A stretch of 64,000 nucleotides of DNA, from positions 22,947 through 86,946 of the forward strand of contig CAXHEV010000003.1 in assembly GCA_964015875.1 (NCBI GenBank). Reading direction: 5' to 3'. The position numbers were made by a program, and so were the translations under genes. Positions 3,913-29,642 of this stretch are shown one piece after another; the first letter of the stretch is position 1; every line of letters starts with the position of its first letter. The DNA is from an uncultured Candidatus Poseidoniales archaeon (lineage in GTDB: Archaea > Thermoplasmatota > Poseidoniia > Poseidoniales > Poseidoniaceae). Below the pieces are notes generated by a model. That model saw nothing but the letters and a program-made list of their open reading frames with translations, did no database searches and was not told the origin of the DNA.

Positions 3913-6900
3913 TCAACGGACAGGGACCTTGGTAAGTCCTGAAATCTCCTGACCCATTCGCTCCAATGCTTGCTGTGCAGCGGCTTGGTGTTGGGTTCCA
4001 AGTTCTTCTCGACTGTACCGTGCTTGCTCAAACATATTGTCGAGGGCGACCAGCGCATCTTCTGAAATCTGCGGCATTGCTTGACGAATAGCCATTTCGA
4101 ATTCTCGAACCGTCTCGAAATCACGGCGTAGGAATCCGTGCTGTTGGAAGGCAGTGCAAAGGTTCTGGTAGCAAGTGAAGATGGCTTCACGAACTGAATC
4201 ACCTGCTGCAAGCAACTCTGCAGTGTAGGCAAAGATTTCTGCGGCTTCTTCCATCAGTTCCTGAGTCTTACGGCGACGGTAGAGCACTGTTCCAGCTGCA
4301 GCGGCAGCGGCGATCAAGAGCGCTAAGACATACACCCATGTTGGAACTGGCTCGGACACCTCTTCGTAATTGTACAATGGCGCCCATGGCGATTCTTCTG
4401 CCCTCGCATTGAATGCGGTTTTGCTTTGTTCGGAAAGACGTGGATCGTCAACGATGATTTCGAGGTAGACTTCACCCCATGTGCTCGCTTCCCCGTAAGG
4501 GGGGTCCGAGTTGAATTCGAATGATGCGACACCGTTTTCATCGGTGAGAGGTTGTTTTGGCGTCGATAGCTGAACACCACTTGCGTTGTAGAGGTAAATA
4601 GTGACCTTAACATCGGAGACACCTAGATTAGTATCCAAAGCAGTGATGACAACATTGCCAGCAATGTCTTCTTGTTCCCCTTCGATGACGGTATTGATTG
4701 AAGGTACAATATCTGCATTCACTTTGACATAGATCAAGTGACTTTCAGAAGCACCATTGAGGTACAAGACATCGTTTCTAGGTGAATCAATATGGAGGTA
4801 TTGACCTCCTGCATTCATCCACGCCGGGGCGATGCCATTCATCGAGAAGTTGCCGTTATTCCAAGCAATCTGAATGTTCTCAAGGCACCGGGCCCCTTCG
4901 CGCTTTGACACACAATCGGAACCGTTTCCAAGATAGAGTGTGAGGTTGTTGAAGACTTCACCTTGGCCTCCAATTTCAGAGACAGACCCTGTCAGGACAA
5001 TTGGTGAAAAGACGTCATCGCTACGAATCACAATGTTTTCTGATGTTCCATCGATGGTGATCTTGGTGTTGGACCAAACGAGTGCTGTTGCACTTGTCGA
5101 TGCTTCGAGGTGGGCGCTTGTCCCAGCAAAGGCTACGGTGAAGGTATGCTCGCCTCGAGTGAGTTCCATGGTCGCTGGTACAATTGCAGACCATGTTCCA
5201 TCAGCAAGAGTGACTGATGTTGCAACTTCCACATCATCCAAACGGATGCTGACCAGCATCGATGGCAAACCATCGTTGTTCACGGTATCAATATCGAAAA
5301 GTCGCCCGGACAGCGACCATGTGTCGCCACGTGTAGCGTCCCTGCCATCGTCGAAAATCAGCGTGATGTCTGAGCGATGGGCGAGGAAGAAGGTGGTGTT
5401 TCCTGCGTTTGAGCGATAGAAACCTTGTGCATCCGCACGCGCTTCTAAGGTATGGTTTCCGAACGAGAAAATGTCTGGGACGTACCAATCGAAGGTGAAA
5501 TCTCCGTTGGCGTCTGTAAGAACGCTCGCCAGCAACACACCTTCAACCGATAGGTCCACTGTGTGGCCTTCAATTCCCAACAATTGGTTATCGACAACCG
5601 ACCCTGAGATGGTGATGTTCTCTGCCACAGCGACTGGACTTTCCATGCTTACAGTCACCTGAACAGGGCTATAAATTGTCCATGTCCCACTTGCCTCACT
5701 TGGCAGGTAGAAGGTGGTGCCCGTGAACCGAGTTTCTAGAAGCAGCGGTCCGAGTGTAGCATCAGATGGTACCGGATAAATGGCAGTGAACGTACCGTTC
5801 GCATCGGTGGTGACATTGGTCATCCATTCGCCACCTAGCCAGACCTCAATCGTGAGACCTGGCAATGGCTCGTCAACCAAATCAAGGAGACGCCCCTGAA
5901 TGGTCATCGTTGCTTCTCGATTCACTTCGCCACCTGGGGTGAGAAGCAGAATCTTGGTTGGAACACTAACGTTGAAGTTTACTTGGTCGCTGCTTGGTAG
6001 GTAGTAATCTGGATTGATCAAATCACCTACACCGATTGGGTCGACCCAATCTCGACCTCCGAGGAAGCGGACTTCGATCAGGTGAGCACCTGCTGTAGTA
6101 TCTTCAGGCAAGGTCCACCCGAGAGTGAATGCCCCTGTTTGTGCATCGGTTTCAATGCTCGAGACTGGCACACCATCAACGAGCAAGTGCACAACTGCCA
6201 ACGACGGCACGCCGTTGATGAACAGTGGTTGACCAAGGTCGTCCATTAGCGTTCCATTGACCACAAACGCATCGCCTGCTGTGAGCGTTGTTGGTGCTTC
6301 TGTGATGCTGAGGTTTGTTTGACCGAGCACAACGAATTGTGTGGTTTCATTCGATCCAACCAGACCAGTTGTACCAGGTGTTCCTGCAAATTCCACATAG
6401 AGGTCTGTGGGTCCTACGCTGAGGTTTTCTGGAACCGAGATGCTGCCAATGGCCGTACCGTTAGCAAAGGTCGTGAACGACGAGAGAGCCAAACCTGGCA
6501 AACCGACCAAGACTTGTTGGTTTCCAACTGCTGTATCGGTGTTGTCCCTCAGTAGAATCTGGAATGAGACATTGTTGCCTCGTTCTGTTCGATCGTTCAG
6601 AGATGGATCTCCGATGCCGTCCAGGGCTGGTTTGATGAACAGCAGGGTAGTGAATCCTCGGCTGTCGAATGTCGTATTGGCTTCAGAACCAATGTAATAA
6701 TTGACGCCTGGGATAAATGAGGCTTCGATTCTGTTGGTGCCTGCTGGGAAAGCCGCACCAAGAGTGATTGTTGCGCTCCACAAACCACCTGTTTGGACAG
6801 TACCACCGCTAACGGTGAATCCTACTGGTTGATCGTTAACTGCGAACAGAATGTTCGCTGGGAGTAGACTTCCGTCACGTAGTTCGAGTCCGGATCCGTT

Positions 6901-9900
6901 GTCGCTCTGTACCGTACCTGTGACGTTAAACGAAGTTCCCGCTACGGGGTTGGCCGTAATCGTATCGACGACCAAGATTGTTGTCGAGCGGATGGTAATC
7001 GAAGAGAGATTCACGTTGGTAGCAAGAAGATCGACGCTACCGTTGAAGACCATGGTTACGGTGATCAACCCGAGAGGGTGGGTCGTCGGCACCAAATAAC
7101 TGAAGTTGGCAAAGCCCTCACCATCAGTTTGTGTTCCTGGTAGCCAACTTTCGTGGAACTCAATGTCCACGTCGTAGCCTCCAAGAGGCAAGAACAAGTT
7201 AGACGATTCAACCAATCGGGCGCTGATGTTGACTTCATCGCCACGGTTGACAAGGATTGGGTTCAGTGGTTGAATGTTCTCAAAGCGTGAGACACCCATG
7301 ACCAACATACCGTTTTGTGTGCTTGCTGTAAGATAGAATGGTGATGATCCCTCAATCACTGATATTACCAATACTTTGTTTCCACGTAGGGTTCCGTTTC
7401 CAGAGGTGTCTGTCGGGATGCTCATGTTGAATGTACCATTGACTGCCGTCTGGTAGCTGCCGACGAGCAGTTCATCCGGATTGCTGAGCCAGAATGCGCT
7501 TAGTTCAACAGGTGCGATCAATGGACGTGTTGCATCATCTCCATCCAGAACTTGACCGAGAACATTGAAGTTGAGCCCAGCAGTCACAGTCGTTGGTATG
7601 CTATCAATTCTGAAATTGCTCGGCACTTGTACGGTCAAGTTCACCAAGGTTGAGTTACCGGTGCGTCGAGTATTACCAACAGCAAGTGGATCGCTGAGGT
7701 CGTCATAGACAATCATCAGTACGTCATAGTAGCCAGGCGCGATTCCCGAAGCAGTCCAACCGGTGCTGGCGAATCCTGCTTCGTCTGAAATTGCAGTTCC
7801 AACAGATACATTCGTTCTGCCATAGTCAAAGATGAATTCAACCGTTGCATCACTAATGTTCGAATCATCTGCAACATCGGTCACAGTGACATTGAAATCA
7901 AGCGAACCGTTGACTTCGACGAGCAGATTTCGTTGACCAGTATCAACCACGAACTCTGATTCAAAGCCGACCAAAGTCGATGGAAGCGTTGGCGTTGCGG
8001 GTGGAACTGTGGTGTCGACAAATCGGTAGTATGGTCCGCCGACAGGCGCCTGATTTTCGAAATCCATGTTGAGAATGAACTCATATGCGTTTGATGGGCT
8101 TGTGGTTGGTACGGTGAAACTGAGGTTGTATTCACTCGTTGTGTTGTTGAGTAGGCCTTGTGCCAAATCAATAGGTTGACCTTCAATGGTCGTCATGATC
8201 AGCGAAAGCATGGTGATGTTATCGCCAAGCACCTTTCGATTGGTGTGAACTGCATCGAAGATGTCACCAAAGATGTAGGTAGAATTGCCCAAATGGGTCC
8301 AATCCTGAGCCAGCGTAATGTTCCAACCGACTTCTGCAGCCACACGTACCGAGGTCACACCAACCGATGGTTGGTACAAGTCTGAACCATTGTAAGAGAT
8401 GTCGAGTTGGTAATCACCAGCGTACATGTCAGAATCGAGCAACCAATTCAACGTGATGGTTTCACTTTCAGGGTCGACTGTCGTGTTGACCCATGAACCA
8501 TTGAAGGAGAAATCAAAGTTTCCGGAGGCGAGCAAATCGGTGTCCACGCCTCGGTGATCGACCATCGAAACGAGAACAACTGCTTCTGTATTCCTGAGTT
8601 GTGAAACCGATTGAGAGGTGAATTGCAACCAACCTCGCAAGAGGTAAGGTGCACCAGCGGACATGTTTGCATCGTCGGTAGCTTCAATCGAATCTGGATA
8701 GAAGCGAACTTGAAGTTCAATTTCACCGGCCGCAATCTGTGCAACACCCGCAGTCAAGAAGTGTTGAACCGAGAAGGTCCCGTTGACGGTCTGGTTGAAC
8801 ACTTCAATCCAATCAGTACCGCTACCAACTGAGCGCATTGAGAAGGAAAGGTTGCCGAGCATGGCAACTGGGTTCGCCCCAGATGTCAATGCAGACCCGT
8901 TCACCCAAATATTGTCGTCGATTTGAATGATGCTCTTGTTGGCAAGTGGACCCTCAAGCGTTGCAGTAAGGGTTGGCGCATCGCGAATATCCAAGAGAAT
9001 CGATTTGGTTGTTGGTCGCAAGTGGAACTGGACGGGTGTGATGCTTGGTTCCGAGGCATCTTGCCAACCTGAGAAACCAAGGGTAGCAGAGAGGTTTGTT
9101 TGCGTTTCCAGTGGGTCAAGTTCAACTTCAATGCTCCACGAACCATCGAAGCCAACGGCTGATGTGAGGTTGACTGAACCATTGATTGAGGAAGTGAAGC
9201 TTAGCCAGACTTCCGGAACAGAATCACTGCTTGCTATGGATGAGAACACATTGGCCGGGGTGTTCTCGAGGGAGAGTTGTCCGGTCACGATGGTGGTTGC
9301 ACCAGCACCAACAATTGGTGCGTTAATGGCGTTTGGTCCGGTGTGATTGATGAGTGCATCATCGGTTACATTGACATAGCCATCGTAGATGATACCGTCT
9401 TCAGAAACATATCCTGATTGAATGTGTTTAATGACAACCCTGTGAATGCCCGGCGCACCAGGTTCAAGTGGAGCACCAATGAATTCGAATGTACCGTTTT
9501 GATCGGTGATGAGGGCACCAATTTCGTAGTTAGGGATGGCAGCAGGTCCTGGCACGCCACCAACTTCTGCAAGCGGAACGAGATAGCCAACCATCGGCAG
9601 ATCCGTAATAGGGGTGGAATTGGTTGCAAAGCGCAACTGACCTGTCACATTGATGGAAGATGCACCTTCTCGGTCCCAAACCAACGTAGAGATGGTTTGA
9701 TTGACAATTTCAATTTCCTCGGCAGCAGGGCACGCATCAAAAGCAATCCAGCCGAGGTCAGTGTTTCCATTGGCGCTGTTTTGTTGGAGGCGGACTTCAC
9801 CCCATGTTGTGCGATCTTGTGGGAACACGGCATAGCCGTCTCCATTCCAGGTTCCTCCGGCAAATCCACTCACATAGCGTGCTGGCAATCCAGCAAGCCT

Positions 9901-12900
9901 TGCCATGGTGACGAAAACGGTATTGAATTCATTACAGGTGCCTTCCTTAACAGCCTCGACAAGAACCACGCTCAAGTCTTCGGTGTTCGGAATGCCTGAG
10001 CCGTTGTAGTTGCGCTTGAATTCAGTTGTTGCGTTTCCTTCAGCAAGGAACGACTGAATGGCTGCTGCAGTGTCATAAGCATTGGTTGCTCCAGCCTCGT
10101 TGACGATGGTTGTCGTGGTGTTCAACAACGAGGATTGTGGGCTGCTCAAGTTGGTGAGACCATCCGGCAACTCAAGTTCGTATGCAAAGCCTTGTCCGGG
10201 AACGGTTGTTGATGCGATCGTTGCCCAATCGAAGTAAAATTCTGGTTGTTGAATGAAGACTTCTTGAATCGGACCTGCAACGACGTTGACGTTATGAGAG
10301 TCGTTTGAACGTTCCAGTTCTGCTCCAGAATCCACATAAAATGACATATTTGACCATGAAACAGGTAGAGGTAAGCCCCCGGTTATGGGTGGATTGTTAA
10401 ATGTCATCAGCCATTCAACGGTGTCGTTAGCAAAAGCCATGTCTGCCAAATGTGTAAAGTTGGAAGATGGAAGGATAATAGTTTCAGATGGATGCACTTC
10501 GGCAATGTGTGCATAAGCTGTGCCGGTGTAGAAGTCGTTGGTGTATTGCCTCCAGCGTTGAGTTGCATCGATATCGACCACGCCGCTGGAGTTGTTCGCC
10601 CAGAAGACCACTTCTGACGCCACGAGGTCATCGGTGGGGTCAAATGGGTCAAACGGTGATCCTAAGCAATTGAGAATCCAGAATTCTTGAGTGCATTCCA
10701 AACCGTCAATCATACCACCACCATCGGTATCCGGGTTGGTCCAGTCGGTACCGGTTTGGTTTTCGATGGCATCGGGAATCAAATCGCCGTCAAAATCTGA
10801 AGGCAACAAATCATCCGTAGGGTTGTTTTCCGGGTTTGTTCCATCGAAGTATTCGTCGCGGTCACTCACACCGCCTGAATCTGTGTCAATGCTGGCGTCA
10901 TCGGTGACCCACACATCGGTCGAGCCGTTGGTGATGCCTATGTAGATGAGATCACAGCCAGTGCTGGTTTCGAAGTAATTGTTGAGACCGTCTTGATCGT
11001 CGTCGAGTAAGTTCGTACACGGCTCATTTGGATCCGTATTTGCAAAGACTTCTTCGAAATCACTTGCCCCGTCACCATCAGAATCAACAAGAGTTGGATT
11101 GGAGAACCAACCAAAGGTACCAAGCAATTCTTGCCAATCGGCTAAGCCATCACCATCGCTGTCAGAATAGTCATCATCGCAGTAATTTCGAGTTGTTGTG
11201 ATCGTTCCGTCAGTGGTTGCATCGGTATGGCAGAAGGAACCGTTGCGGTTGGCAACTTGCGTGGCGGTACCAGGGGCGGATGAAACACCCTGAATCAAAT
11301 CATTGACTACCGTTGCATAGGCAAACGGCGTCCATGTTCCAGATATGTTGAACCAACCGACACCCCCTGCAGGGTTGAAACCACTTCCATCAGCGACTTC
11401 GAGTCGCCCATTTCCGTTATTCCATGTGACAATGGTGGTTTCAAAGTTCACCAGCGAGTCACAAGGATCTGTGCCGTGAGAAACATTTTGCTCATCGCCA
11501 TCATTAATGCCACCAAAATCAGTGTCCGCAACATCCCATAGGGTGCATGAGAGGTTTTCTTCCCAATTTTGTATACCGTCGTTATCCTCATCACCTGAGT
11601 CTTCTCGACGGGTTGGGTCGGTTTCACCCGCATCGACCACGCCGTTTCCGTTGATATCTTCTTCACCATCATCGAAGGCGTCGCCATCGGTGTTGTTGTT
11701 TCGTGGATCGCTTGCTTGAGCAGGGCTTCCATATTGTCCAGCAACTTCAATGCCGTCGCTGATTCCATCACCATCTGTATCAGATGATGTCGGGTCAGTT
11801 AGCAACGTCAGAGCTTCTCGTGAATCATTGAGCCCGTCACCATCTGTGTCAGCTCGTTGAGGGTTGGTCGAAGTGATACCGTCAACTTCTGCCGTGAAGG
11901 TTGCACAGCCACCCGGACCAACGCCGCTCACCGGATCACAAGGCGAAGTGGTTTCCGTCACAAGACCAGTCGGTCCGTTACGGAAACATGGGGAGGCGCC
12001 ACACATTGTTGTCCATGTCGGGTTGATGTATTCGAGCAAGTTGTTCAAGCCGTCACCGTCTGGGTCACCGTTCGGACCGTTGTCATTGGTTGGGTCTGTT
12101 GCGTTCAATCCGTTGGCTGCTTCCCAACCATCGTCCATTCCGTCACCATCAGTGTCCCAACCTGCAACGTCTTCGTCCTCGATACCGTCACCGTCATCAT
12201 CGTTGGATGAGCAGTCTGCATCACCGTCGTTATCCGAATCGGCAGAGTCGACGAAACCGTCTTTGTCGTCATCGAACCCGTTGGTACAGATGTTTCCGAC
12301 CGGATCTTCGTCGCAAAGGATGATTGTGCCAGTGCCGTCTGAACCCGAGTCTCCACAACCTGGACGGTTGTATTGGAGAGCATTTTCTTCATCCCAGTTG
12401 TTGACTGGCACGGTTCCATTCCACCAGACACCATTGTCAAGCACACCGCTGGTGCTCGATAGATCCCAGTTCGTAGGTTGGAGATAGTTGTATTCTTGCA
12501 GATTTGACATGCCGTCGCCGTCAGGATCGCCGACAGCACCGTCGCCACCCGTGCTGGATAGCGGGTCAAGTCCATACTGCCACTCCCAACCATCTGGCAA
12601 ACCATCGTTGTCAGAATCTGGGTCGTTGGGTGCCGTGTTCATGAGATACTCAAGCCCGTAAGTCAAACCGTCGCCATCCTGGTCTGTTGCTGCAAGTGCA
12701 TCGAAGGAAACATACTGAATTGAGGCAAATGTGGAGAGCACCATCAACGCAACAAGAGCGACGGATTTGACCGTGTCTCGGTGCTGAAGGATTTGCCACT
12801 GAAAGCGCGGCTTCGAGGGGGAAGAAGGCGTACGCATGGTTGTCACAAGAACTCGGCTGTTTTGATGCCTCATAAGGCAAATGGTACGATGTTCATACAA
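3913..12900 (-). CDS. Giant (2995 aa) cell-surface protein
   Basis: A single uninterrupted 8.99 kb ORF. Architecture, N to C:
- Signal peptide: hydrophobic segment SVALVALMVLSTFASI after a possible alternative start MRTPSS at nt 12837.
- Residues ~70-760: dozens of DxDxDGxxDxxE-like Asp/Gly repeats (thrombospondin type 3 / Ca-binding style).
- Hundreds of N-x-S/T sequons.
- Residues ~985-1040: transglutaminase-like core EGTCNEFNTVFVTMARLAGLPARYVSGF ... GWIAFDA.
- Many beta-rich repeats follow.
- C-terminal hydrophobic helix VYVLALLIAAAAAAGTVLY followed by RRRK.
- A ~115 aa cytoplasmic tail with a TVREF motif resembling DUF4129. Confidence 0.85.
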   Translation of the reverse strand: MYEHRTICLMRHQNSRVLVTTMRTPSSPSKPRFQWQILQHRDTVKSVALVALMVLSTFASIQYVSFDALAATDQDGDGLTYGLEYLMNTAPNDPDSDNDGLPDGWEWQYGLDPLSSTGGDGAVGDPDGDGMSNLQEYNYLQPTNWDLSSTSGVLDNGVWWNGTVPVNNWDEENALQYNRPGCGDSGSDGTGTIILCDEDPVGNICTNGFDDDKDGFVDSADSDNDGDADCSSNDDDGDGIEDEDVAGWDTDGDGMDDGWEAANGLNATDPTNDNGPNGDPDGDGLNNLLEYINPTWTTMCGASPCFRNGPTGLVTETTSPCDPVSGVGPGGCATFTAEVDGITSTNPQRADTDGDGLNDSREALTLLTDPTSSDTDGDGISDGIEVAGQYGSPAQASDPRNNNTDGDAFDDGEEDINGNGVVDAGETDPTRREDSGDEDNDGIQNWEENLSCTLWDVADTDFGGINDGDEQNVSHGTDPCDSLVNFETTIVTWNNGNGRLEVADGSGFNPAGGVGWFNISGTWTPFAYATVVNDLIQGVSSAPGTATQVANRNGSFCHTDATTDGTITTTRNYCDDDYSDSDGDGLADWQELLGTFGWFSNPTLVDSDGDGASDFEEVFANTDPNEPCTNLLDDDQDGLNNYFETSTGCDLIYIGITNGSTDVWVTDDASIDTDSGGVSDRDEYFDGTNPENNPTDDLLPSDFDGDLIPDAIENQTGTDWTNPDTDGGGMIDGLECTQEFWILNCLGSPFDPFDPTDDLVASEVVFWANNSSGVVDIDATQRWRQYTNDFYTGTAYAHIAEVHPSETIILPSSNFTHLADMAFANDTVEWLMTFNNPPITGGLPLPVSWSNMSFYVDSGAELERSNDSHNVNVVAGPIQEVFIQQPEFYFDWATIASTTVPGQGFAYELELPDGLTNLSSPQSSLLNTTTTIVNEAGATNAYDTAAAIQSFLAEGNATTEFKRNYNGSGIPNTEDLSVVLVEAVKEGTCNEFNTVFVTMARLAGLPARYVSGFAGGTWNGDGYAVFPQDRTTWGEVRLQQNSANGNTDLGWIAFDACPAAEEIEIVNQTISTLVWDREGASSINVTGQLRFATNSTPITDLPMVGYLVPLAEVGGVPGPAAIPNYEIGALITDQNGTFEFIGAPLEPGAPGIHRVVIKHIQSGYVSEDGIIYDGYVNVTDDALINHTGPNAINAPIVGAGATTIVTGQLSLENTPANVFSSIASSDSVPEVWLSFTSSINGSVNLTSAVGFDGSWSIEVELDPLETQTNLSATLGFSGWQDASEPSITPVQFHLRPTTKSILLDIRDAPTLTATLEGPLANKSIIQIDDNIWVNGSALTSGANPVAMLGNLSFSMRSVGSGTDWIEVFNQTVNGTFSVQHFLTAGVAQIAAGEIELQVRFYPDSIEATDDANMSAGAPYLLRGWLQFTSQSVSQLRNTEAVVLVSMVDHRGVDTDLLASGNFDFSFNGSWVNTTVDPESETITLNWLLDSDMYAGDYQLDISYNGSDLYQPSVGVTSVRVAAEVGWNITLAQDWTHLGNSTYIFGDIFDAVHTNRKVLGDNITMLSLIMTTIEGQPIDLAQGLLNNTTSEYNLSFTVPTTSPSNAYEFILNMDFENQAPVGGPYYRFVDTTVPPATPTLPSTLVGFESEFVVDTGQRNLLVEVNGSLDFNVTVTDVADDSNISDATVEFIFDYGRTNVSVGTAISDEAGFASTGWTASGIAPGYYDVLMIVYDDLSDPLAVGNTRRTGNSTLVNLTVQVPSNFRIDSIPTTVTAGLNFNVLGQVLDGDDATRPLIAPVELSAFWLSNPDELLVGSYQTAVNGTFNMSIPTDTSGNGTLRGNKVLVISVIEGSSPFYLTASTQNGMLVMGVSRFENIQPLNPILVNRGDEVNISARLVESSNLFLPLGGYDVDIEFHESWLPGTQTDGEGFANFSYLVPTTHPLGLITVTMVFNGSVDLLATNVNLSSITIRSTTILVVDTITANPVAGTSFNVTGTVQSDNGSGLELRDGSLLPANILFAVNDQPVGFTVSGGTVQTGGLWSATITLGAAFPAGTNRIEASFIPGVNYYIGSEANTTFDSRGFTTLLFIKPALDGIGDPSLNDRTERGNNVSFQILLRDNTDTAVGNQQVLVGLPGLALSSFTTFANGTAIGSISVPENLSVGPTDLYVEFAGTPGTTGLVGSNETTQFVVLGQTNLSITEAPTTLTAGDAFVVNGTLMDDLGQPLFINGVPSLAVVHLLVDGVPVSSIETDAQTGAFTLGWTLPEDTTAGAHLIEVRFLGGRDWVDPIGVGDLINPDYYLPSSDQVNFNVSVPTKILLLTPGGEVNREATMTIQGRLLDLVDEPLPGLTIEVWLGGEWMTNVTTDANGTFTAIYPVPSDATLGPLLLETRFTGTTFYLPSEASGTWTIYSPVQVTVSMESPVAVAENITISGSVVDNQLLGIEGHTVDLSVEGVLLASVLTDANGDFTFDWYVPDIFSFGNHTLEARADAQGFYRSNAGNTTFFLAHRSDITLIFDDGRDATRGDTWSLSGRLFDIDTVNNDGLPSMLVSIRLDDVEVATSVTLADGTWSAIVPATMELTRGEHTFTVAFAGTSAHLEASTSATALVWSNTKITIDGTSENIVIRSDDVFSPIVLTGSVSEIGGQGEVFNNLTLYLGNGSDCVSKREGARCLENIQIAWNNGNFSMNGIAPAWMNAGGQYLHIDSPRNDVLYLNGASESHLIYVKVNADIVPSINTVIEGEQEDIAGNVVITALDTNLGVSDVKVTIYLYNASGVQLSTPKQPLTDENGVASFEFNSDPPYGEASTWGEVYLEIIVDDPRLSEQSKTAFNARAEESPWAPLYNYEEVSEPVPTWVYVLALLIAAAAAAGTVLYRRRKTQELMEEAAEIFAYTAELLAAGDSVREAIFTCYQNLCTAFQQHGFLRRDFETVREFEMAIRQAMPQISEDALVALDNMFEQARYSREELGTQHQAAAQQALERMGQEISGLTKVPVR
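10620..12690 (-). repeat. Asp-rich thrombospondin-type-3-like Ca-binding repeat array within the giant protein gene
   Basis: Translated residues ~70-760 contain reiterated D-x-D-x-D-G-x-x-D units (DTDGDGMDDGWE, DPDGDGLNNLLE, DSDGDGASDFEE and similar). Confidence 0.5.
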
Positions 12901-12992: not shown

Positions 12993-15941
12993 TCAAAGAG
13001 CTTCAAGTTCATCCAAAAGTTCGAGATCGTCATCGTCGTCTTCTTCTAGCACGGGTTCTGGAAGGTCGCTTTCCAATGGTTCGAGTTCCTTCTCATCTTC
13101 GTATTCGAATGTTTCTTCTTCAAAAATTGTACCTGAAGCCTGACCGCGCCTGTAAACTGCAAAGATGAATGCAGCACACAATCCAAGTCCCAAAACAAGC
13201 GTTTGTGGTTCGGGGTTGACCAGTTCGTTAACAAAACAACTGGGGCCTTCGCAGGAGGTTTGGTAAGTCTGTTTGCTGGTTTGTGTAAAATCGCTATCGT
13301 ATGGGACCTCTTCATCCATAGGCGTCACCTTGAGGTCGAATTGCACCGTTTCGCCGTTCTTCAGATTATTTGGCGGGGTGATGGCTAATGAGAAATCTTT
13401 GCTTGAATAAGCAGGGAGGGTCAGCAGCAAGAAACTACCACCTGTCTGGTCGGACGATGCTCGCACGAGAACATCCCAACCTTGTGGCTCATTTTCAAGT
13501 GTGATTACAACATCCAGTGGGATGTTGTTTTGATTATCAATGCTGTATTCGACCGTCTGGAATTCACCCGAGGTGAAACGGACAACTGAGCTGCTTGTGT
13601 CAGTGATTTCGAGACGACCAGGTTGGACATCTTCTCTGACTTGAACAGTCACTGGCAAATCGAAGTATCGGGCATCTTGGGCATCAACACCCTCTTCAAC
13701 AACCCGAACGTAAACAGTGTGGTTTCCTGCTTCCACCTTGTCACCAATGGTCACATCGAGTTTGAGGTCTGCATATTGGTCGGATTCAAGATAAACGACG
13801 ACGATATCGGACTGAGAGCCATTCGAAATGTCGTAGTTCCACGAGCCGTAAGGTGAATCGTCCTCGTTATTTCTGTCGAGGTCTTCTGGATTGATGATTC
13901 GCCATGTGGTTTGGCCAATTGTATCGCTTGAATCAGTGATACGCATCTGATACCACAACGAGGATCCCGGGCTCACTGGACCAACGGTGCCCAGTGTTCC
14001 ACTGTCGGAATCGGCTGTGACCTCGACAAGAACACCAAACGTGCGATGCACTGTGAAGGCAACCGAGGTACTGAGTTCAGAATCACCTTGACTGGCAATA
14101 CTGATGGAAACAAGCCCGATGTCTTGAGCGTCTCGTTCCGATGGTGGGAAGACTTCCATACGAACGGTTAGAATCTGGTGGGAGCCGATATCAGGCGTCA
14201 CTGAGTGGATGCCTTCCTCGACCAACTCAAGTCCTGTTTCGTTGTCATAGAACTTGTATTGCCACGCATCCGGTAGTTCGGTCACGCGCAACTTGAATGC
14301 GTCTGTAATGAATCCAGAATTGAAGACGTCAATGAAGAAATCACCGCTGACATCACCTGAATCCACATAGTGTGATAACAGTTCATCGTAGGCTTCTGGG
14401 CGTGTCGAGTCTGCAATCTGCTTCTGATGTTCATCATCCTCAAACACAGCGATCCTCGGAGGTGAAAGGACGTCGGATTCCTCGACATCGAGGACAATGG
14501 TTTCCACAGCAACTTCCACTGTTTGACCTTCGGTGTTTTCAGCGTAGGCACGCGCCTCGATTTCAAGGGTGTTTGGAGCCGAAGTAAGGTCATCATCTGG
14601 CACTTCAATGCTCAAAATTGGACGAGCAAAAGTACCGCCACCTGAGAGGCTGTAGCCTCCAGGCTGATCCCAAACAGGATCTGACCAGGTTGAGGGCAGC
14701 GAGCGTGAAAGAGAAAACACGACGTCCAATTGAGAGGAACTCGCCCCGGTGTGTTCAATCAAGAATTCAACACTGGAAGTCTGACCGGGTGCAATCAAAA
14801 TGACATCAGGTTGACTTTCAGGGAGCGTCAGGTAGACGTCATGCTCAACGAACTCGATACCGCTGTGTTCAAACACCAAGGTGTGACCTTGAACGTCACT
14901 GATTTCAAGGCGGAGTGGGTATTCTCCAGCAGCGATTCCGGTTTCGTATTGGAAGGTGTAGTTTCCAACTAGGCCGTTGTTGTCGAGCTTCAAATCGTCA
15001 TCATCGAAGGACTTCGAAAAGACCGTCCCGGCTTCGTTCGGTGTTGTCATCACAAGGTCCACGCCTTGGATGTCGTCCCTGCCAAAGGCGTCTCTGACAT
15101 CGACCGAAAACTGCATGTTTCGGAACTCAGGTCGATGTGCAGGCGACCATTCAGTCACCTCTGGTTCTAGGAAACCGCCGCCGGGGCGGTGAACCTTGAC
15201 CACGGAATTTGCAAGTGCGTTTGCTTTCATTTCAAGTTTTGAATACCCGTTGGTTTGTTCAACATCACCGAAAGCAACGTTGACTTCACAATTGCCACCA
15301 CCCAATCCGCCACCGCCACTGCTTTCGCAGGTTGCTTGTGCATCGACGTTGAGCCGGAGTTGTTTCCCGTTGGCCACGGTGAAGCCATCAGAGGGAACGT
15401 CGAAGTCGACAATGGAAGAGGTCCAAGAGCACGAACTCGTACCGAATGTACCACCAGTACACGGATCATCAAGTGTTTCAGAAACGGAATCTACTTCCGA
15501 ATCACCGGACTTGAGTGAGTAGGTAATGTCTGCCGTCGAGCCTTGTGATCCCCTGAATTGAAGGAACAGGGTGAGTGTGACCTTGTCGGTGTTATCTCGA
15601 CCATAGACAAGTAAATCGGAGATCATTTCAGCACTTCTGAATTCAACGCCACCAAAAGCACTGGCTTCTTGGTGGGCACCCGTTGGCTCGAGGGTCGTAA
15701 TCGATCCTTCTCCGCCGCTTTCGCTGTTTGCCTCATCAAGGTAGAGATTGTATGACTGACATGTTGAACATGAAGAAGCTGAGTTCATCTGAACGGTTGA
15801 CTCCTCCAATGTTTCTGCTTCGACAGATTCAACATTTACGCTGGTCTGAAGAGGTGCAACACCGCCCAGCATGATCAAAACGAGCAGGACTGCCAAAAAT
15901 CGGCCATTGGGGGATGAAATTGAAGTCATCAAGGTGTTCAC
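12993..15941 (-). CDS. Large (982 aa) type-I membrane/surface protein with acidic cytoplasmic tail
   Basis: N-terminal signal/anchor helix LAVLLVLIMLGGVAPL. Long beta-rich, Ser/Thr/Asp-rich ectodomain with many N-x-S/T sequons. C-terminal TM helix LVLGLGLCAAFIFAVY followed by RRG. Then an extremely acidic tail (EEETFEYEDEKELEPLESDLPEPVLEEDDDDDLELLDELEAL). Same strand and immediately upstream of the giant gene, with a 92-nt gap. Confidence 0.8.
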   Translation of the reverse strand: MNTLMTSISSPNGRFLAVLLVLIMLGGVAPLQTSVNVESVEAETLEESTVQMNSASSCSTCQSYNLYLDEANSESGGEGSITTLEPTGAHQEASAFGGVEFRSAEMISDLLVYGRDNTDKVTLTLFLQFRGSQGSTADITYSLKSGDSEVDSVSETLDDPCTGGTFGTSSCSWTSSIVDFDVPSDGFTVANGKQLRLNVDAQATCESSGGGGLGGGNCEVNVAFGDVEQTNGYSKLEMKANALANSVVKVHRPGGGFLEPEVTEWSPAHRPEFRNMQFSVDVRDAFGRDDIQGVDLVMTTPNEAGTVFSKSFDDDDLKLDNNGLVGNYTFQYETGIAAGEYPLRLEISDVQGHTLVFEHSGIEFVEHDVYLTLPESQPDVILIAPGQTSSVEFLIEHTGASSSQLDVVFSLSRSLPSTWSDPVWDQPGGYSLSGGGTFARPILSIEVPDDDLTSAPNTLEIEARAYAENTEGQTVEVAVETIVLDVEESDVLSPPRIAVFEDDEHQKQIADSTRPEAYDELLSHYVDSGDVSGDFFIDVFNSGFITDAFKLRVTELPDAWQYKFYDNETGLELVEEGIHSVTPDIGSHQILTVRMEVFPPSERDAQDIGLVSISIASQGDSELSTSVAFTVHRTFGVLVEVTADSDSGTLGTVGPVSPGSSLWYQMRITDSSDTIGQTTWRIINPEDLDRNNEDDSPYGSWNYDISNGSQSDIVVVYLESDQYADLKLDVTIGDKVEAGNHTVYVRVVEEGVDAQDARYFDLPVTVQVREDVQPGRLEITDTSSSVVRFTSGEFQTVEYSIDNQNNIPLDVVITLENEPQGWDVLVRASSDQTGGSFLLLTLPAYSSKDFSLAITPPNNLKNGETVQFDLKVTPMDEEVPYDSDFTQTSKQTYQTSCEGPSCFVNELVNPEPQTLVLGLGLCAAFIFAVYRRGQASGTIFEEETFEYEDEKELEPLESDLPEPVLEEDDDDDLELLDELEAL

Positions 15942-16034
15942 CGTACCGTCCTGTTCAACCGACTGTTAAACGGTTTTGCATTGTTTGTTCGGACAAACCC
16001 CCTCTACGAGGGGGAGGAAGGGGTTGGAATGTAA

Positions 16035-16118
16035 TGCAGGGGGTGGGATACGAACCCACGAACCCATACGGGACCGGATCTTAAGCCCGGCGCCTTTGAC
16101 CACCTCAGCCACCCCTGC
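16035..16118 (-). tRNA. tRNA-Leu (anticodon UAA), no intron, CCA not encoded
   Basis: The reverse complement folds as a canonical class II tRNA:
- Acceptor GCAGGGG/CCCCTGC with discriminator A.
- D arm GCT..GGC.
- Anticodon stem CCGGG/TCCGG with loop CTTAAGA (anticodon TAA).
- Long variable arm CCC-GTAT-GGG.
- T arm GTGGG-TTCGTAT-CCCAC.
Very close to haloarchaeal tRNA-Leu(UAA) from memory. Confidence 0.85.
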
Positions 16119-16168
16119 AGTCGGTCCACAGGACCACATGATTTGAAGAAAACCCCTGCTCAAGTTGC

Positions 16169-17065: not shown

Positions 17066-18094
17066 ATGCCGGGCAAACCACTACCTATGGCGAAGCAACT
17101 CCCACCTGCATTGAGGCCTAAACCAAAGCGTGAACGACTCCCACCATGGTTCAAAACAGCACTTCCATCTGGCGAACAACAGGCTATTTTTAACAGCACG
17201 AAGGCAGCGGTAAAAGACAACACATTGCACACCGTCTGTCAAGAGGCACGCTGCCCGAATATTCACGACTGTTGGGCCAGTGGCGATGCCACCTTCATGA
17301 TTGCAGGACAAGAATGCACCAGAGGGTGCCGATTCTGTGCTGTTGGCACGATCAAGACACCTCCTCCCTTGGATTCTGATGAACCAACCAACCTTGCCAA
17401 TGCTGTCGAATCGATGAACTTGCGACACGCAGTCATTACAGTTGTCAACCGAGATGACCTTCCTGACAGCGGAGCCGACCATTACAAGCAATGCATTCAA
17501 GCCGTCCACGACCGCCAACCACATGTCTCTCTCGAACTGCTCTGCTCGGATTTGGCAGGTGATCATGATGCACTCGCCCATCTCCTCGATGGCAGTCCAC
17601 TTTCCGTCTTCGCTCACAATGTCGAATGTGTCCCCAGGCTCGATGCAACCGTGCGCGACCATCGTGCATCTTTTTCACAATCACTTGAAATCCTAAGAAC
17701 AGCTAAACAACTGCGCCCAGACATCCTCACAAAATCATCGGTCATGGTCGGTGTCGGAGAGACCGATGAAGAAATCACCGAGGTGCTTGGCATGCTCAGA
17801 GAAGCGGGTGTCGATTTGGTAACCATTGGTCAGTACCTTGCACCATCATCCAAACATCTCGCTGTCGACCGCTTTCCGGAACCAGACATGTACGATCAAT
17901 GGGCACAACATGCCATTGCCATTGGATTCTCTGGGATAGCGAGTGGCCCACTGGTTCGGTCCTCGTTCAAGGCTGGACTTTTGCTTAGGAAAACACAAGA
18001 CCCGAACAACTCAGAATCAATGCCAGGAGCATACGTCTATGTGGCCCACCAAGGAAACGAGGCACCGGTACACCTTAAGAGCGGGATGGAATGA
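17066..18094 (+). CDS. lipA: Lipoyl synthase (radical SAM)
   Basis: N-terminal auxiliary-cluster Cys motif (CQEARCPNIHDCW). Radical-SAM CxxxCxxC (CTRGCRFC). Conserved LipA core throughout. Confidence 0.9.
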   Translation: MPGKPLPMAKQLPPALRPKPKRERLPPWFKTALPSGEQQAIFNSTKAAVKDNTLHTVCQEARCPNIHDCWASGDATFMIAGQECTRGCRFCAVGTIKTPPPLDSDEPTNLANAVESMNLRHAVITVVNRDDLPDSGADHYKQCIQAVHDRQPHVSLELLCSDLAGDHDALAHLLDGSPLSVFAHNVECVPRLDATVRDHRASFSQSLEILRTAKQLRPDILTKSSVMVGVGETDEEITEVLGMLREAGVDLVTIGQYLAPSSKHLAVDRFPEPDMYDQWAQHAIAIGFSGIASGPLVRSSFKAGLLLRKTQDPNNSESMPGAYVYVAHQGNEAPVHLKSGME

Positions 18095-18103
18095 GGGGAT
18101 TCA

Positions 18104-19345
18104 ATGACCGAGAGAGTGACAGCCACGACAACGCCGTACACCATCGGCCGTCCACCCTTTCGGCCCGGTGATAAGGCTGACTTTGGTGGTAAATTCAAGG
18201 AACAACCCGGTGATTTGAACCGCCCAGACCCTCTCTCGTGCTCCGCACAAGATACCGTTGACCATGCTGTTGGCTTGGTACGTGTCCTCAATGACGATGG
18301 ACAAGCCAAGGGCGAATGGGATCCAAAGTTGGATGCTGAGACAATGATTCAGGGCCTTGAATACATGATGCGATTACGTATTTTTGATGATCGAATGATC
18401 AAAATGCAGCGCACTGGAAAACTTTCATTCTACATGCGATCTTTTGGAGAAGAAGCCATCGCTATTGCCCAAACAATGGCCCTTGAAACTCAGGATTGGA
18501 TTTTTCCATCCTACCGACAACCCGGTGCACAATTCGTGCGTGGACGGGACATGGTCAGCATGATTTGCCACTGCATCGGTAATACTGAAGACAACGTCAA
18601 GGGACGTCAGATGCCAGTTCACTACACTTGGAAAGAAGGGCGGTTTATCTCCATATCCTCACCTGTTGGCACCCAATTCTCCCAAGCTGTTGGTGTGGCC
18701 ATGGCAAGCGCCTACAAAGGTGATGACGAAGTGTGTATTTCGTGGCTTGGCGACGGTACTTCCGCTCAGGGCGACTATCACTATGCTCTCAATTTCGCCT
18801 CCACCTTCAAGCCTCCAGTCATCCTCAATGTCGTCAACAACCAGTGGGCTATTTCCACTCACGCTAACCTAGCAACTGGCGGACGAACCTTCGCTGAACG
18901 CGGGCTGGCTTACGACATTCCTTCAATTCGAGTGGATGGCAACGATTTCCTCGCACTTTACAGTGTAACAAAGTGGGCTCGAGACCGCGGCGCTGCTGGA
19001 TTAGGTGCCACTCACATCGAGGTCTACACGTACCGTGCAGGTGCCCACTCTTCTTCTGATGACCCATCGGCCTACCGGCCAAATGATGAATTTGAATGCT
19101 GGCCGGGTGGCGACCCGATTGAACGTCTCAAGGATTATTTGATCAAGAACGATATGTGGGATGAAGAACGCAACGCAGCACTCGCTCAGAAAATCGATGA
19201 CGAGGTGATGACATCCTACAAGGCTGCATGCGAATTTGGTGATTTAGCAAGTGGTCCCTATCCGCCCGCATCGACTATTTTCACTGAAGTGTACGAAACT
19301 GTACCATGGCATGTTCAAGAACAACGAGAGGAACTTGGTAAGTGA
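18104..19345 (+). CDS. 2-oxoacid dehydrogenase E1 component alpha subunit (TPP-dependent; pyruvate/branched-chain type)
   Basis: TPP-binding E1-alpha fold motifs (GDGTSAQGDYHYALNFAS, YRAGAHSSSDDPSAYR). Followed directly by the E1-beta, E2 and E3 genes. Confidence 0.9.
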   Translation: MTERVTATTTPYTIGRPPFRPGDKADFGGKFKEQPGDLNRPDPLSCSAQDTVDHAVGLVRVLNDDGQAKGEWDPKLDAETMIQGLEYMMRLRIFDDRMIKMQRTGKLSFYMRSFGEEAIAIAQTMALETQDWIFPSYRQPGAQFVRGRDMVSMICHCIGNTEDNVKGRQMPVHYTWKEGRFISISSPVGTQFSQAVGVAMASAYKGDDEVCISWLGDGTSAQGDYHYALNFASTFKPPVILNVVNNQWAISTHANLATGGRTFAERGLAYDIPSIRVDGNDFLALYSVTKWARDRGAAGLGATHIEVYTYRAGAHSSSDDPSAYRPNDEFECWPGGDPIERLKDYLIKNDMWDEERNAALAQKIDDEVMTSYKAACEFGDLASGPYPPASTIFTEVYETVPWHVQEQREELGK

Positions 19346-19353
19346 GGTGGCGA

Positions 19354-20366
19354 TGATGGCAGACATGAACATGATCAAAGCACTGAACTCCGCCCTTGAA
19401 GTTCAACTAGAGAAGGACCCAAACATCGTCATTTTTGGTGAAGACGTCGGTTTCTTTGGTGGTGTTTTCCGCGTCACTGATGGATTACAGAAAAAATTCG
19501 GTGAACACCGTGTGTTTGACTCCCCTCTTGCCGAAGGTGGCATTGCTGCAATCGCCATGGGTATGGGTTTGAACGGACTTCGTCCTGTTGCAGAAATTCA
19601 ATTTGCCGACTACATCTTCCCGGCGTATGACCAAATTGTCAATGAAATTGCCAAAGTTCGTCACCGCTCTGGTGGCGAATTTACGGCCCCACTCACCTTC
19701 CGCACCCCGGCTGGTGGAGGCATCAAGGGCGGTCATCATCACTCGCAATCACCTGAAGCACAATTCACTCACACACCTGGTTTGAAAGTCGTCTATTGTT
19801 CAAACCCCTACAACGCGAAGGGCTTGTTGACTGCGGCGATTGAATGCAATGACCCAGTCATCTTCTTTGAACCAAAGCGATGCTACCGCGGCCCATTTTA
19901 CGGCGACCCACACAACGTACCAACATGGTCCGGACACCCAGATGCTGAAGTGCCAGAAGGTCACTTCATCGTCCCACTTGAAGAGGCTCGTGTTGTTCGA
20001 GAAGGTGAAGCTTGCACGGTGATTGCTTGGGGTACAATGGTCCACGTCTGCGAGCAAGCGATCAAGGATTCTGGTGTTGACTGTGAACTGATTGACTTGC
20101 AAACGCTGGTTCCTTGGGACCGTGATACTGTGGTCAACTCCATCAAGAAGACCGGACGATGTGTTATTGTCCATGAAGCTCCAAAGACAAGTGGGTTTGG
20201 CGCCGAGATGAGCGCTTCGATTCAAGAGCGCTGCTTCTACCATCTTGAAGCACCAATCACTCGCGTGACAGGTTGGGACACACCCTTCCCTCACACAACG
20301 GAATGGGATTATCTTCCTAGTCCAGAACGAATTGCAGAAGCAATAAAGAAAACACAGGAGGAATGA
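19354..20366 (+). CDS. 2-oxoacid dehydrogenase E1 component beta subunit
   Basis: Transketolase-like beta subunit (MNMIKALNSALE..., VFRVTDGLQKKFGEHRVFDSPLAEGGI). Track ORF 19251..20366 overlaps E1-alpha; the ATG at 19354, just after the E1-alpha stop, is the likely start. Confidence 0.9.
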
Positions 20367-21655
20367 ATATGGGAACATTTGCATTTAAAATGCCAGATAT
20401 CGGAGAAGGCGTCGTCGAAGGCGAAGTTGTAGAATGGATGGTCGCCGTTGGAGACACCGTCAAAGAAGATGATCCAATTCTCTCAGTGATGACCGACAAA
20501 GCAACCGTAGAAATCCCATCACCAGTTGATGGTACTGTCACCAAAGTTGTCGGTGAAGCCGGTGATATCCTCCCTGTTGGTGTCGTGTGCATTGAATTCG
20601 AGGTCGATGGTGCTGGAAACGCATCCGCTTCTGAAGAAGCACCTGCGAAGAAAGCCGCTCCAGAACCAAAGGAAGAACCAACACCTGCTCCAGCAGAACC
20701 CGCACCTGCACCTGCCCCAGCACCTGCTCCAGCCGAGGCACCTGCTGCTGCCCCAGTGGCCCGTGCACCTGGGACTAAGGCGCTTGCCAGCCCTGCAGTA
20801 CGACAGCGAGCGCGAGAAGCAAACATCAGCCTCGACCATGTTGCCGGATCCGGTCCTGGCGGTCGAATCAGTCATGCTGATTTAGACGCCCACATCGCTG
20901 GAGGTGCCTCTGGAGCAAGTCGAGCACGTCCGATGGGTGGTCGTGCACGAACTGAACTCAATGGGACCGAGACCATGAAGGTCATTGGACTGCGCCGCAA
21001 GATTGCAGATTCTATGATTGCATCCTACTCAACCATACCTCACTTCTCGTACTTCGAGGAAGTGGATGTGACTGCACTTGAAGAACTCCGCCAACACCTC
21101 AACGCAACTCGACCGGAAGGTGCTCCAAAACTTACCTACTTGCCTTTCATTATGCAAGCGCTTGTCAAGGCACTTGCTGAGCGCCCAGAGTGCAACGCAC
21201 TCTACGATGACGAAGCAAATGTGGTTACTCGACACGAAGCGATTAACCTCGGCATCGCTACGCAAACTGACCGTGGATTGTTCGTCCCAGTTGTCAAGCA
21301 CGTTGAAGCGATGGACATCTGGCAATCTGCCACAGAAATGGTTCGCGTCACTGGCGCAACCCGTGAAGGCAAGGCCGGAGTGGAAGACCTCAGTGGTTCC
21401 ACCTTCACAATCACCAGCCTTGGACGACTCGGGGGACTTGGTGCGACACCAATAATCAACAAGCCTGAAGTTGGCATCCTTGGAGTCCACAACGCCACGG
21501 ATCGAGCTGTGGTTCGAAACGGCTCAGTCGTCATTCGCCGAATGATGAACCTCTCATCCTCATGGGACCATCGCGTTGTCGACGGTCACGACGGAGCAAG
21601 CTTGGTTCAATTGGTCAAAACATACCTAGAGAATCCAGCTACAATTTTCATGTGA
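20363..21655 (+). CDS. Dihydrolipoamide acyltransferase (E2) of the 2-oxoacid dehydrogenase complex
   Basis: N-terminal lipoyl domain (lipoyl-Lys context SVMTDKATVEIPSP). Pro/Ala-rich flexible linker. Peripheral subunit-binding domain (LASPAVRQRAREANISL). C-terminal catalytic domain with DHRVVDG. 4-nt overlap with E1-beta (ATGA). Confidence 0.9.
   Translation: MNMGTFAFKMPDIGEGVVEGEVVEWMVAVGDTVKEDDPILSVMTDKATVEIPSPVDGTVTKVVGEAGDILPVGVVCIEFEVDGAGNASASEEAPAKKAAPEPKEEPTPAPAEPAPAPAPAPAPAEAPAAAPVARAPGTKALASPAVRQRAREANISLDHVAGSGPGGRISHADLDAHIAGGASGASRARPMGGRARTELNGTETMKVIGLRRKIADSMIASYSTIPHFSYFEEVDVTALEELRQHLNATRPEGAPKLTYLPFIMQALVKALAERPECNALYDDEANVVTRHEAINLGIATQTDRGLFVPVVKHVEAMDIWQSATEMVRVTGATREGKAGVEDLSGSTFTITSLGRLGGLGATPIINKPEVGILGVHNATDRAVVRNGSVVIRRMMNLSSSWDHRVVDGHDGASLVQLVKTYLENPATIFM
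20690..20760 (+). repeat. Tandem low-complexity repeat encoding the (PA)n/(APA)n interdomain linker of E2
   Basis: The stretch gcacctgcacctgccccagcacctgctccagcc gives EPAPAPAPAPAPAEAPAAAP. It explains the spurious antisense and alternate-frame ORFs in the track at 20317..20885. Confidence 0.6.
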
Positions 21656-21667
21656 GGTTTGATTGAT

Positions 21668-29104: not shown

Positions 29105-29638
29105 ATGAGAATGGGTTTGGAATCTTCTGCAATTGCTACCGCCATACAGGCGGTACGAGCCCTGGTCACTGTGTATGACGGCTATGAGAAAGGTCGATTC
29201 ATGAAATCTGATGAAGCGGTTCGATCTGAAATTCAGCGGCGTTGTGAGATGCTTATTCGCCACGCTGAGAAACTTGAGCAAGATGCTCACCGGCGAAATC
29301 ATCGAAATTCAAGAATGGCCTGCGCTCAAGTCATTGAGAATCTTGAATCATACAACAGAGAAGCGCAATTTTCGACTTCTGCAAACCATATTTCAAAACA
29401 TAAAGGAATTGGTAAACTCAAATCTTCATCTGTTCGTAAATTAGTCGACCACGACAGCAAGAGCTTGCAATCACTGGTCGAGGCCACACGCAAAGCCAAC
29501 GAGGTGGCAGAGTCATTGTCCGACCTGCCTGAACAAGAGGGGTTGGCACTCATATCTCAGTTTGAACAAAAAATCAACAGAGCAAGAAACCATTTCCTTG
29601 AACGAAACATGTTCATTGACGGACTCACAACGAGATGA
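29105..29638 (+). CDS. Hypothetical alpha-helical/coiled-coil protein (177 aa)
   Basis: Track ORF 28967..29638 overlaps the dut 3' end; an internal ATG at 29105 is preferred. Highly charged helical sequence with no recognised domain. Confidence 0.45.
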   Translation: MRMGLESSAIATAIQAVRALVTVYDGYEKGRFMKSDEAVRSEIQRRCEMLIRHAEKLEQDAHRRNHRNSRMACAQVIENLESYNREAQFSTSANHISKHKGIGKLKSSSVRKLVDHDSKSLQSLVEATRKANEVAESLSDLPEQEGLALISQFEQKINRARNHFLERNMFIDGLTTR

Positions 29639-29642
29639 TACC

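Follow-up and report, generated by a model that had tools for sequence, protein, structure and literature searches.

TgpA of Pseudomonas aeruginosa, a protein of 688 aa with six transmembrane helices, has a well-conserved Cys-His-Asp triad and shows transglutaminase activity in vitro (PMC3507681). Other proteins with the transglutaminase (TGase) fold, such as band 4.2 (EPB42), Rad4/XPC and FBXO21, are inactive and serve as scaffolds or binders; band 4.2 is devoid of the catalytic triad, and the papain-like domain of Rad4 is inactive (PMC10318531; PMC13073648). Here we analyzed a 64,000-nt stretch of DNA (referred to as the window) from an uncultured Candidatus Poseidoniales archaeon (Poseidoniaceae; assembly GCA_964015875.1, contig CAXHEV010000003.1), which encodes a giant surface protein with a TGase-like core domain. 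The interpretation that we favor, albeit with some reservation, is that this core is a pseudo-enzyme whose former nucleophile is probably engaged in a disulfide between Cys989 and Cys1057, and that it belongs to the head of a giant adhesin-like protein with a TgpA-like layout. The following features of the window are central to this interpretation:

3913-12900, minus strand: giant surface-protein gene, a single open reading frame (ORF) of 2,995 aa counted from the first TTG
9727-10095, minus strand: TGase-like core, aa 936-1058 (PF01841, hhalign, AlphaFold2 (AF2) model and fold match)
9934-9936, minus strand: Cys989, position of the catalytic nucleophile (family Cys column; N-terminus of a helix in the AF2 models)
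9808-9810, minus strand: Thr1031, position of the catalytic His (phmmer, profile alignment and hhalign)
9736-9738, minus strand: Asp1055, position of the catalytic Asp (D in 68 and E in 9 of 77 orthologs)
9730-9732, minus strand: Cys1057 (Asp+2), which replaces a conserved Thr and is the proposed disulfide partner of Cys989

The original prediction had assigned this segment to the TGase-like superfamily, and the assignment was upheld by both sequence and structure comparisons. The giant protein contains a single Transglut_core domain (PF01841) at aa 936-1056 (E = 1.6e-13, 51.3 bits versus a cutoff of 23), whose alignment spans positions 9-108 of the 108 profile positions, and its orthologs scored 46.6-61.8 bits against the same profile. 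A profile of the archaeal cores matched the canonical TgpA-like domains with a probability of 99.9% (hhalign; E = 5e-32), and the periplasmic domain of P. aeruginosa TgpA (6g49) was the best and only significant sequence relative of the core with a solved structure. An AF2 model of aa 920-1080 (predicted local distance difference test score 84.3, predicted template modeling score 0.77) also had TgpA 6g49 as its best fold match in the PDB (probability 1.0, TM-score 0.60, rmsd 3.1 Å over 134 columns), and further Foldseek matches were S. pyogenes TglA, TG3, FXIIIa and arylamine N-acetyltransferases. For a larger model of 420 aa, TgpA was again the top fold match, with 250 columns aligned to its periplasmic domain (Foldseek). 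These results identify the segment as a genuine TGase/papain-fold domain of the TgpA type. In the model of the core, C989 opens a helix, T1031 is situated on the next long strand, and D1055 ends the strand that follows.

The residue numbers that had been given for the conserved sequence blocks agree with the 2,995-aa minus-strand ORF. The Cys block contains EGTCNEF at aa 986-992 (window positions 9945-9925), with C989 in the family Cys column. RTTWGEV was located correctly within the predicted interval of 9780-9950 (aa 1030-1036, 9813-9793), whereas GWIAFDA (aa 1050-1056, 9753-9733) lies just outside of it. Moreover, the Asp block does not follow the pattern W..FD(A/P)T that it had been said to match; it reads FDAC-P, with Cys1057 in place of the conserved Thr.

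The conservation of these positions was assessed in orthologs recovered by a genome scan, which covered one genome per GTDB species and returned 79 loci. These loci stem from metagenome-assembled genomes (MAGs) of Poseidoniaceae/Poseidoniales and include the original MG-II assembly (CM001443.1). Word-indexed homolog searches mostly yielded short fragments, and the full-length orthologs were obtained through an exhaustive profile search and the genome scan.

Three alignments, all anchored on the invariant residues W1033 and E1035, place T1031 in the column of the catalytic His and agree with the predicted substitution of this residue. In the phmmer alignment the TgpA segment 'FDAHAWVE' stands opposite 'QDRTTWGE', and in the hhalign comparison 'AHaW~Ev' stands opposite '~~tW~EV', with the His on T1031 in both cases. 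In a profile alignment of 373 related domains, this column contains His in the 203 canonical domains, which were chosen for having His there in addition to the nucleophile Cys, and in none of the 48 domains of the clade that contains the giant protein. A scan of aa 936-1070 of the giant protein found no His at all. Among 77 Poseidoniaceae orthologs, the column is occupied by Thr (46), Ala (17), Ser (11), Gly (2) or Asn (1) and thus by small residues only, but never by His. The wider clade has S, A, T, R, D, N or L at this site, and the full-length relatives from the exhaustive search have N, S, A, L, D or T. With an entropy of 1.54 bits the column ranks 28th among the 135 columns of the core, 39 of which are invariant, and the neighboring residues W1033, E1035 and V1036 do not vary at all. 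Since the His column is variable within an otherwise very conserved domain, T1031 is no substitute catalytic residue. Of the two options that had been proposed for the core, an inactive binding module or a variant triad, we therefore disfavor the latter and infer that the domain is catalytically inactive and has a role in binding or adhesion.

Several other sites were considered as replacements and rejected. The upstream residues H798, H803 and H869 are common within the Poseidoniaceae but not conserved across the order. A His shifted by two residues (W-4) was discarded, as this site contains D, H, N or S in the clade and Q, N or D in canonical relatives and appears to be an ordinary polar position. 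An internal thioester or isopeptide bond formed via Q1039/Q1040, which are invariant in the Poseidoniaceae, was dismissed because these residues are not conserved outside this family.

The second alteration concerns the residue two positions after the catalytic Asp. The Thr at Asp+2 corresponds to Thr360 of TG2 and is conserved in all active transglutaminases. In TG2 it is located before the acyl-acceptor entrance of the active-site tunnel that passes over the catalytic Cys, and its mutation lowers the activity (PMC2140088; PMC13073648). In contrast to the canonical domains, 107 of 108 of which contain Thr at Asp+2, Cys was found at this site in all 77 orthologs and in all 48 domains of the His-less clade. 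Among domains with the His, Asp+2 was Cys in 4 and another residue in 148, whereas among those lacking the His it was Cys in 48 and another residue in 15. Judged from these alignments, two active-site residues are altered in the His-less clade and not only one, and the second change had been overlooked in the original prediction. Other features specific to the clade are an acidic residue at Cys+2 (E or D in 35 of 36 domains versus H, N or Q in canonical ones), a basic residue (R, K or H) at position 1037, a GGxWxGxGY loop and an 8-residue insertion, QQNSANGN. A single domain combining the Cys-His-Asp triad with Cys at Asp+2 was seen, at aa 534-640 of a 1,287-aa protein from a JGI metagenome (P0119), and may represent an evolutionary intermediate between the canonical and the His-less states.

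Unlike the His, the nucleophile Cys is retained throughout. C989 is invariant in the 77 orthologs, and in the wider His-less clade each of the 36 domains with a residue at this position likewise has Cys there. The Asp column contains D or E in the orthologs and D, E, N or R in the wider clade, where N and R are confined to a few members. The distribution of cysteines along the protein offers an explanation for the retention of C989. Most ectodomain cysteines of the giant protein occur in close pairs (182/196, 205/230, 300/305, 321/332, 452/480, 557/574, 628/649, 736/745 and 2663/2672), and C989 and C1057 are the sole cysteines in the approximately 1,900 ectodomain residues between aa 746 and 2662. 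In a comparison of seven full-length orthologs, the pairs 182/196, 300/305 and 2663/2672 vanish as pairs and extra pairs appear in P0077 and P0102; the lone exception to the pairing is an unpaired Cys1778 in P0102. C989 and C1057 were always both present. This pairwise gain and loss of ectodomain cysteines is the behavior expected of disulfides. Together with the tunnel position of the residue equivalent to C1057 and the small residues in the His column, the cysteine parity makes a C989-C1057 disulfide the simplest reading, and C989 is thus most likely oxidized. In this case, Cys989 would probably have been retained because of its invariant partner Cys1057.

These observations suggest the following scenario. 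In the ancestor of Marine Group II (MGII; Poseidoniales), the catalytic His would have been lost (it is Thr1031 here) and the Thr at Asp+2 replaced by Cys (Cys1057). In the oxic extracellular setting, the Cys989-Cys1057 disulfide would link the core helix and the loop that follows the Asp strand, and the old substrate groove may have turned into a non-catalytic binding or scaffolding surface. The TGase-like domain would be displayed near the distal end of the membrane-anchored giant protein.

The loss of the His extends beyond the Poseidoniaceae, as a His-less cluster (P0072) carries the NCBI name Thalassarchaeaceae and the loss therefore spans both families of the order. In comparisons with the two closest genomes, the ratio of nonsynonymous to synonymous substitution rates (dN/dS) of the core was 0.018 and 0.017 at dS values of 0.54 and 0.77, respectively. 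The core is under strong purifying selection and is functional rather than decaying. The core thus shows a retained fold, a clade-wide loss of the His and purifying selection, the combination by which a pseudo-enzyme of the TGase fold is recognized.

Several points weigh against this interpretation. An invariant nucleophile Cys together with a mostly kept acid (D/E) would also be expected of an active, non-canonical enzyme, and the polar clade-specific residues by the site (E/D at Cys+2, R/K/H at 1037) could be those of a remodeled active site. The His was probably lost and Cys1057 gained on a single occasion in one ancestor, so that the perfect co-occurrence of the two changes counts as one event and not as 48. 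The proposed disulfide is, in addition, derived from sequence comparisons. An unlikely, although not negligible, alternative is accordingly that the domain is still an enzyme that works independently of His, with Cys989 being activated by Asp1055 or Glu991 (perhaps with the aid of Arg1037) or forming with Cys1057 a redox-active pair that would act on surface substrates by thiol-disulfide chemistry. The conservation of Cys989 in every ortholog, the dN/dS of about 0.02, the predominance of D/E in the Asp column and the well-conserved, clade-specific E/D at Cys+2 and basic residue at 1037 would all fit such an enzyme, and the microbial transglutaminase of Streptomyces indeed depends mainly on a Cys-Asp pair. 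However, some members have N or R in the Asp column, the tunnel Thr needed in TG2 for normal transamidation is gone, and a His column that tolerates R, D, L and G leaves no constant chemistry. The cysteine pairing also provides a simpler reason for keeping Cys989. We regard it as quite improbable that Cys989 and Cys1057 constitute a new two-cysteine active center, namely a disulfide that is reversible or capable of exchange and is flanked by Glu991 and Arg1037 at the old tunnel.

It is highly improbable that the triad is completed in trans by a His that the upstream subdomain, an Ig-like (immunoglobulin-like) domain of the giant protein or a 982-aa protein encoded next to it would place beside Cys989. 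H803 was found in all 74 Poseidoniaceae orthologs (of 77) that have a residue at this site, H798 and H869 are common, and 67 of the 79 loci contained a match to the gene of the 982-aa protein, which was adjacent wherever coordinates were read. These three His residues are, however, not conserved in Thalassarchaeaceae or more distant orthologs, and aa 700-1200 do not contain any column that is His in all seven full-length orthologs, which leaves no replacement His common to the order. Furthermore, the strand position of the His is filled by a freely varying side chain, and we know of no precedent for a His supplied in trans in the TGase fold. The chance that the missing His reflects an artefact, be it misalignment, a mistake in sequencing or assembly or the decay of a pseudogene copy, is practically nil. 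Nothing speaks for it except that the Asp block lies slightly outside the interval originally given, whereas three alignment methods agree, the 2,995 codons of the ORF are uninterrupted, the same state recurs in 77 independent genomes, and selection on the domain is strong. On balance, we retain the interpretation of the core as a pseudo-enzyme, probably with a disulfide between the two cysteines.

The protein that carries the core is organized into the following further segments:

12688-12837, minus strand: signal peptide or signal anchor, aa 22-71, with a hydrophobic core at aa 46-66 (hydropathy scan)
10621-12684, minus strand: acidic repeat region of the Ca2+-binding type, aa 73-760, approximately 690 aa (TSP3_bac)
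10096-10617, minus strand: clade-specific beta-rich subdomain, aa 762-935, directly N-terminal of the TGase core
4351-9663, minus strand: stalk of diverged Ig-like/beta-sandwich domains, aa 1080-2850, approximately 1,770 aa (Pfam)
4273-4350, minus strand: C-terminal transmembrane anchor, aa 2851-2876, followed by RRRK (hydropathy scan)
3961-4173, minus strand: cytoplasmic DUF4129 with a CxxxxC pair, aa 2910-2980 (PF13559)

The real start of the ORF is probably M10 (12873) or M22 (12837). Full-length orthologs have 2,701-3,088 aa and the same architecture, and this layout is kept in both MGII families. In all orthologs compared, a hydrophobic leader is directly followed by (A/S)TDQDGDGL, and 'ALA-A' in front of TDQDGDG is a possible signal-peptide cleavage site. 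The hydropathy scan revealed one N-terminal and one C-terminal hydrophobic segment only. Within the repeat region, we identified 14 DxDxDG motifs, which represent thrombospondin type-3-like repeats, and eight of the closely spaced Cys pairs; the Pfam family TSP3_bac matched four stretches of the protein (30.5 bits versus a cutoff of 25). The subdomain preceding the core (aa 762-935) is predominated by beta-strands in an AF2 model of low-to-medium confidence, and a hidden Markov model (HMM) built from it matched members of the His-less clade only.

Pfam matches above the cutoffs in the stalk were Big_3_5 (38.8 bits, cutoff 35.5) and CarboxypepD_reg (32.8 bits, cutoff 32.3), while bMG3 and Big_1 matched below threshold. 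The first Ig-like domain of the stalk showed fold matches to Ig-like domains of adhesins, intimin and macroglobulins (Foldseek), and no recent internal repeats were detectable when the stalk was compared with itself by BLAST. The C-terminal DUF4129 (27.9 bits versus a cutoff of 24.8) is also C-terminal in the orthologs P0064, P0072 and P0102. It starts with a Cys pair, C-YQNL-C (aa 2910 and 2915); four of the six full-length orthologs compared keep both of these residues, P0064 has the first only and P0073 has neither. The ectodomain (aa 67-2850) contains 76 N-x-S/T sequons and 0.7% Lys, and the pI of the protein is 4.05, which suggests that it is probably a heavily N-glycosylated and very acidic surface protein.

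TSP3 and Ig-like families above threshold, a secretion signal and a surface anchor are the hallmarks of a surface adhesin, and all of them are present in the giant protein. We infer that it forms a membrane-anchored stalk that would present a head of Ca2+-binding-type repeats and the TGase-like domain, and that may have an adhesin-like or cell-envelope organizing function. Thrombospondin-type genes in Poseidoniales have been interpreted as adhesion genes, and an adhesin-like role of the giant protein would fit this proposal (PMC6461757).

The surroundings of the giant gene are also conserved. Upstream of it lies one co-directional gene:

12993-15941, minus strand: gene of the 982-aa surface protein, 92 nt upstream of the giant gene

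According to its translation, the 982-aa protein has a signal peptide, a beta-rich ectodomain, a C-terminal transmembrane helix and a very acidic tail, and no Pfam or NCBIfam family matched it above cutoff. Its gene was matched by tblastn in the 67 loci mentioned above and directly precedes the giant gene in each of the 15 loci for which coordinates were read. It may encode a functional partner of the giant protein or an envelope protein. In loci with flanking sequence, the genes follow one another as lipoyl synthase, SDR, tRNA-Leu, 982-aa surface protein, giant protein, a 200-aa ORF and XPD helicase; matches to the individual flanking genes were obtained in 51-67 of the 79 loci. Two of the loci are filed under bacterial MAGs, namely L030 (NZEQ01000074.1, 'Verrucomicrobiales bacterium ARS100') and L065 (CAXRAI010000077.1, 'Salinimicrobium sp.'). 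Both carry the complete Poseidoniaceae block of lipA, SDR, 982-aa gene, giant gene, orf200 and XPD with 39-79% protein identity and are almost certainly mis-binned archaeal contigs.

In the window, the tRNA-Leu gene (anticodon TAA; 16034-16119, minus strand) is located between the SDR gene and the pair of surface-protein genes. This pair is adjoined by genes for lipoyl synthase, a complete 2-oxoacid dehydrogenase operon (E1 alpha, E1 beta, E2 and E3) and lipoate-protein ligase on the plus strand (17066-23098 and 30941-31588). Three ORFs of 432, 526 and 640 aa (29562-30860, plus strand; 41798-43378, minus strand; 58622-60544, minus strand) did not match any Pfam family at E≤1e-5. The remainder of the window consists of archaeal housekeeping genes, such as those for eRF1, class-I LysRS, aTrm56, ribonucleotide reductase, carbamoyl-phosphate synthase and the 2-oxoacid dehydrogenase operon. 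Bacterial TgpA-like genes have operon partners of the MoxR/DUF58 type; a partner of this kind was rejected for the giant gene, as none of the main ORFs in the window contained such a domain.

The uncultured members of Marine Group II rank with the most abundant archaea in surface seawater, and the giant protein bears on the construction of their cell surface and on their attachment to particles. Public records name it "transglutaminase-like putative cysteine protease" or "transglutaminase domain-containing protein", and this label should not be taken as evidence of enzyme activity. Inactive TGase-fold domains as such are already well known (PMC10318531), and what is new here is the signature of a kept Cys, a lost His and a Thr-to-Cys exchange. 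Based on the sequences compared, this signature appears to be fixed across an abundant uncultured archaeal order, as represented by the 79 Poseidoniaceae species-level loci and the Thalassarchaeaceae. Literature searches combining Poseidoniales or MGII with transglutaminase, and DUF4129 with transglutaminase, returned nothing relevant and no description of the signature. The core provides a natural example of a catalytic Cys that outlasted the catalytic His, probably by being recruited into a disulfide, and it cautions against calling pseudo-enzymes by which triad residues remain. A His-less core does not by itself open a long-standing question, and wider interest would arise only if the two cysteines proved to be a working redox or catalytic center. 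Such a center would offer thiol-disulfide chemistry for the covalent capture or remodeling of particle, prey or envelope proteins, and this His-free chemistry would be undescribed for the superfamily and present in a very abundant archaeal group of the surface ocean.

Among known systems, TgpA (PA2873; PDB 6g49/6g4h) shares with the core the Cys, ARxVxG, WxE and GWxxFD motifs. Both proteins also have the same order of an extracytoplasmic TGase domain, a transmembrane segment and a cytoplasmic DUF4129, although approximately 1,800 aa separate the core from the transmembrane helix in the giant protein. In contrast to TgpA, the archaeal protein has neither the His nor the Thr at Asp+2, and it carries the QQNSANGN insertion and the GGxWxGxGY loop. 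It also possesses one signal peptide instead of a multi-transmembrane N-terminus of the DUF3488 type, for which neither a Pfam match nor a hydropathy signal was obtained in the giant protein, and about 2,700 aa of repeats surround its TGase-like domain. The next-best relatives of the core (E-values of 1e-48 to 1e-28) are giant proteins of 2,000-3,300 aa with multiple TGase-like domains (such as P0067, P0069, P0070 and P0098). These have 2-7 TGase-like stretches that are mostly of the C-H-D/E-T type and in some cases degenerate, whereas the giant protein of the window has one such domain only, which is His-less in all orthologs. There are many related proteins of 1,000-3,300 aa with 2-7 TGase-like domains; 21 of the domains read S-H-D-T, with Ser in place of the nucleophile Cys, and others are fully degenerate.

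Weak fold or sequence matches connect the giant protein to the giant Ca2+-dependent adhesins of marine bacteria, such as the 1.5-MDa ice-binding adhesin (PDB 5irb), and to TSP3-repeat proteins such as CglD and MtsD. Like the archaeal protein, the giant adhesins combine Ig-like extenders with acidic Ca2+-binding repeats, and their ligand-binding region is distal. Judged by its NCBIfam scores, which were far below the cutoffs (80 versus 400 and 33 versus 800), the archaeal protein is not a member of these groups, and it differs from the bacterial adhesins in being anchored by its own C-terminal transmembrane helix and in having a TGase-like head. Band 4.2, Rad4/XPC and FBXO21 resemble the core in that the fold is kept while at least one triad residue is lost, but they are eukaryotic, intracellular and not close homologs of the archaeal clade. 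Compared to band 4.2 and Rad4, the archaeal core is distinguished by keeping an invariant Cys, by losing only the His of the triad and by gaining a Cys at Asp+2.

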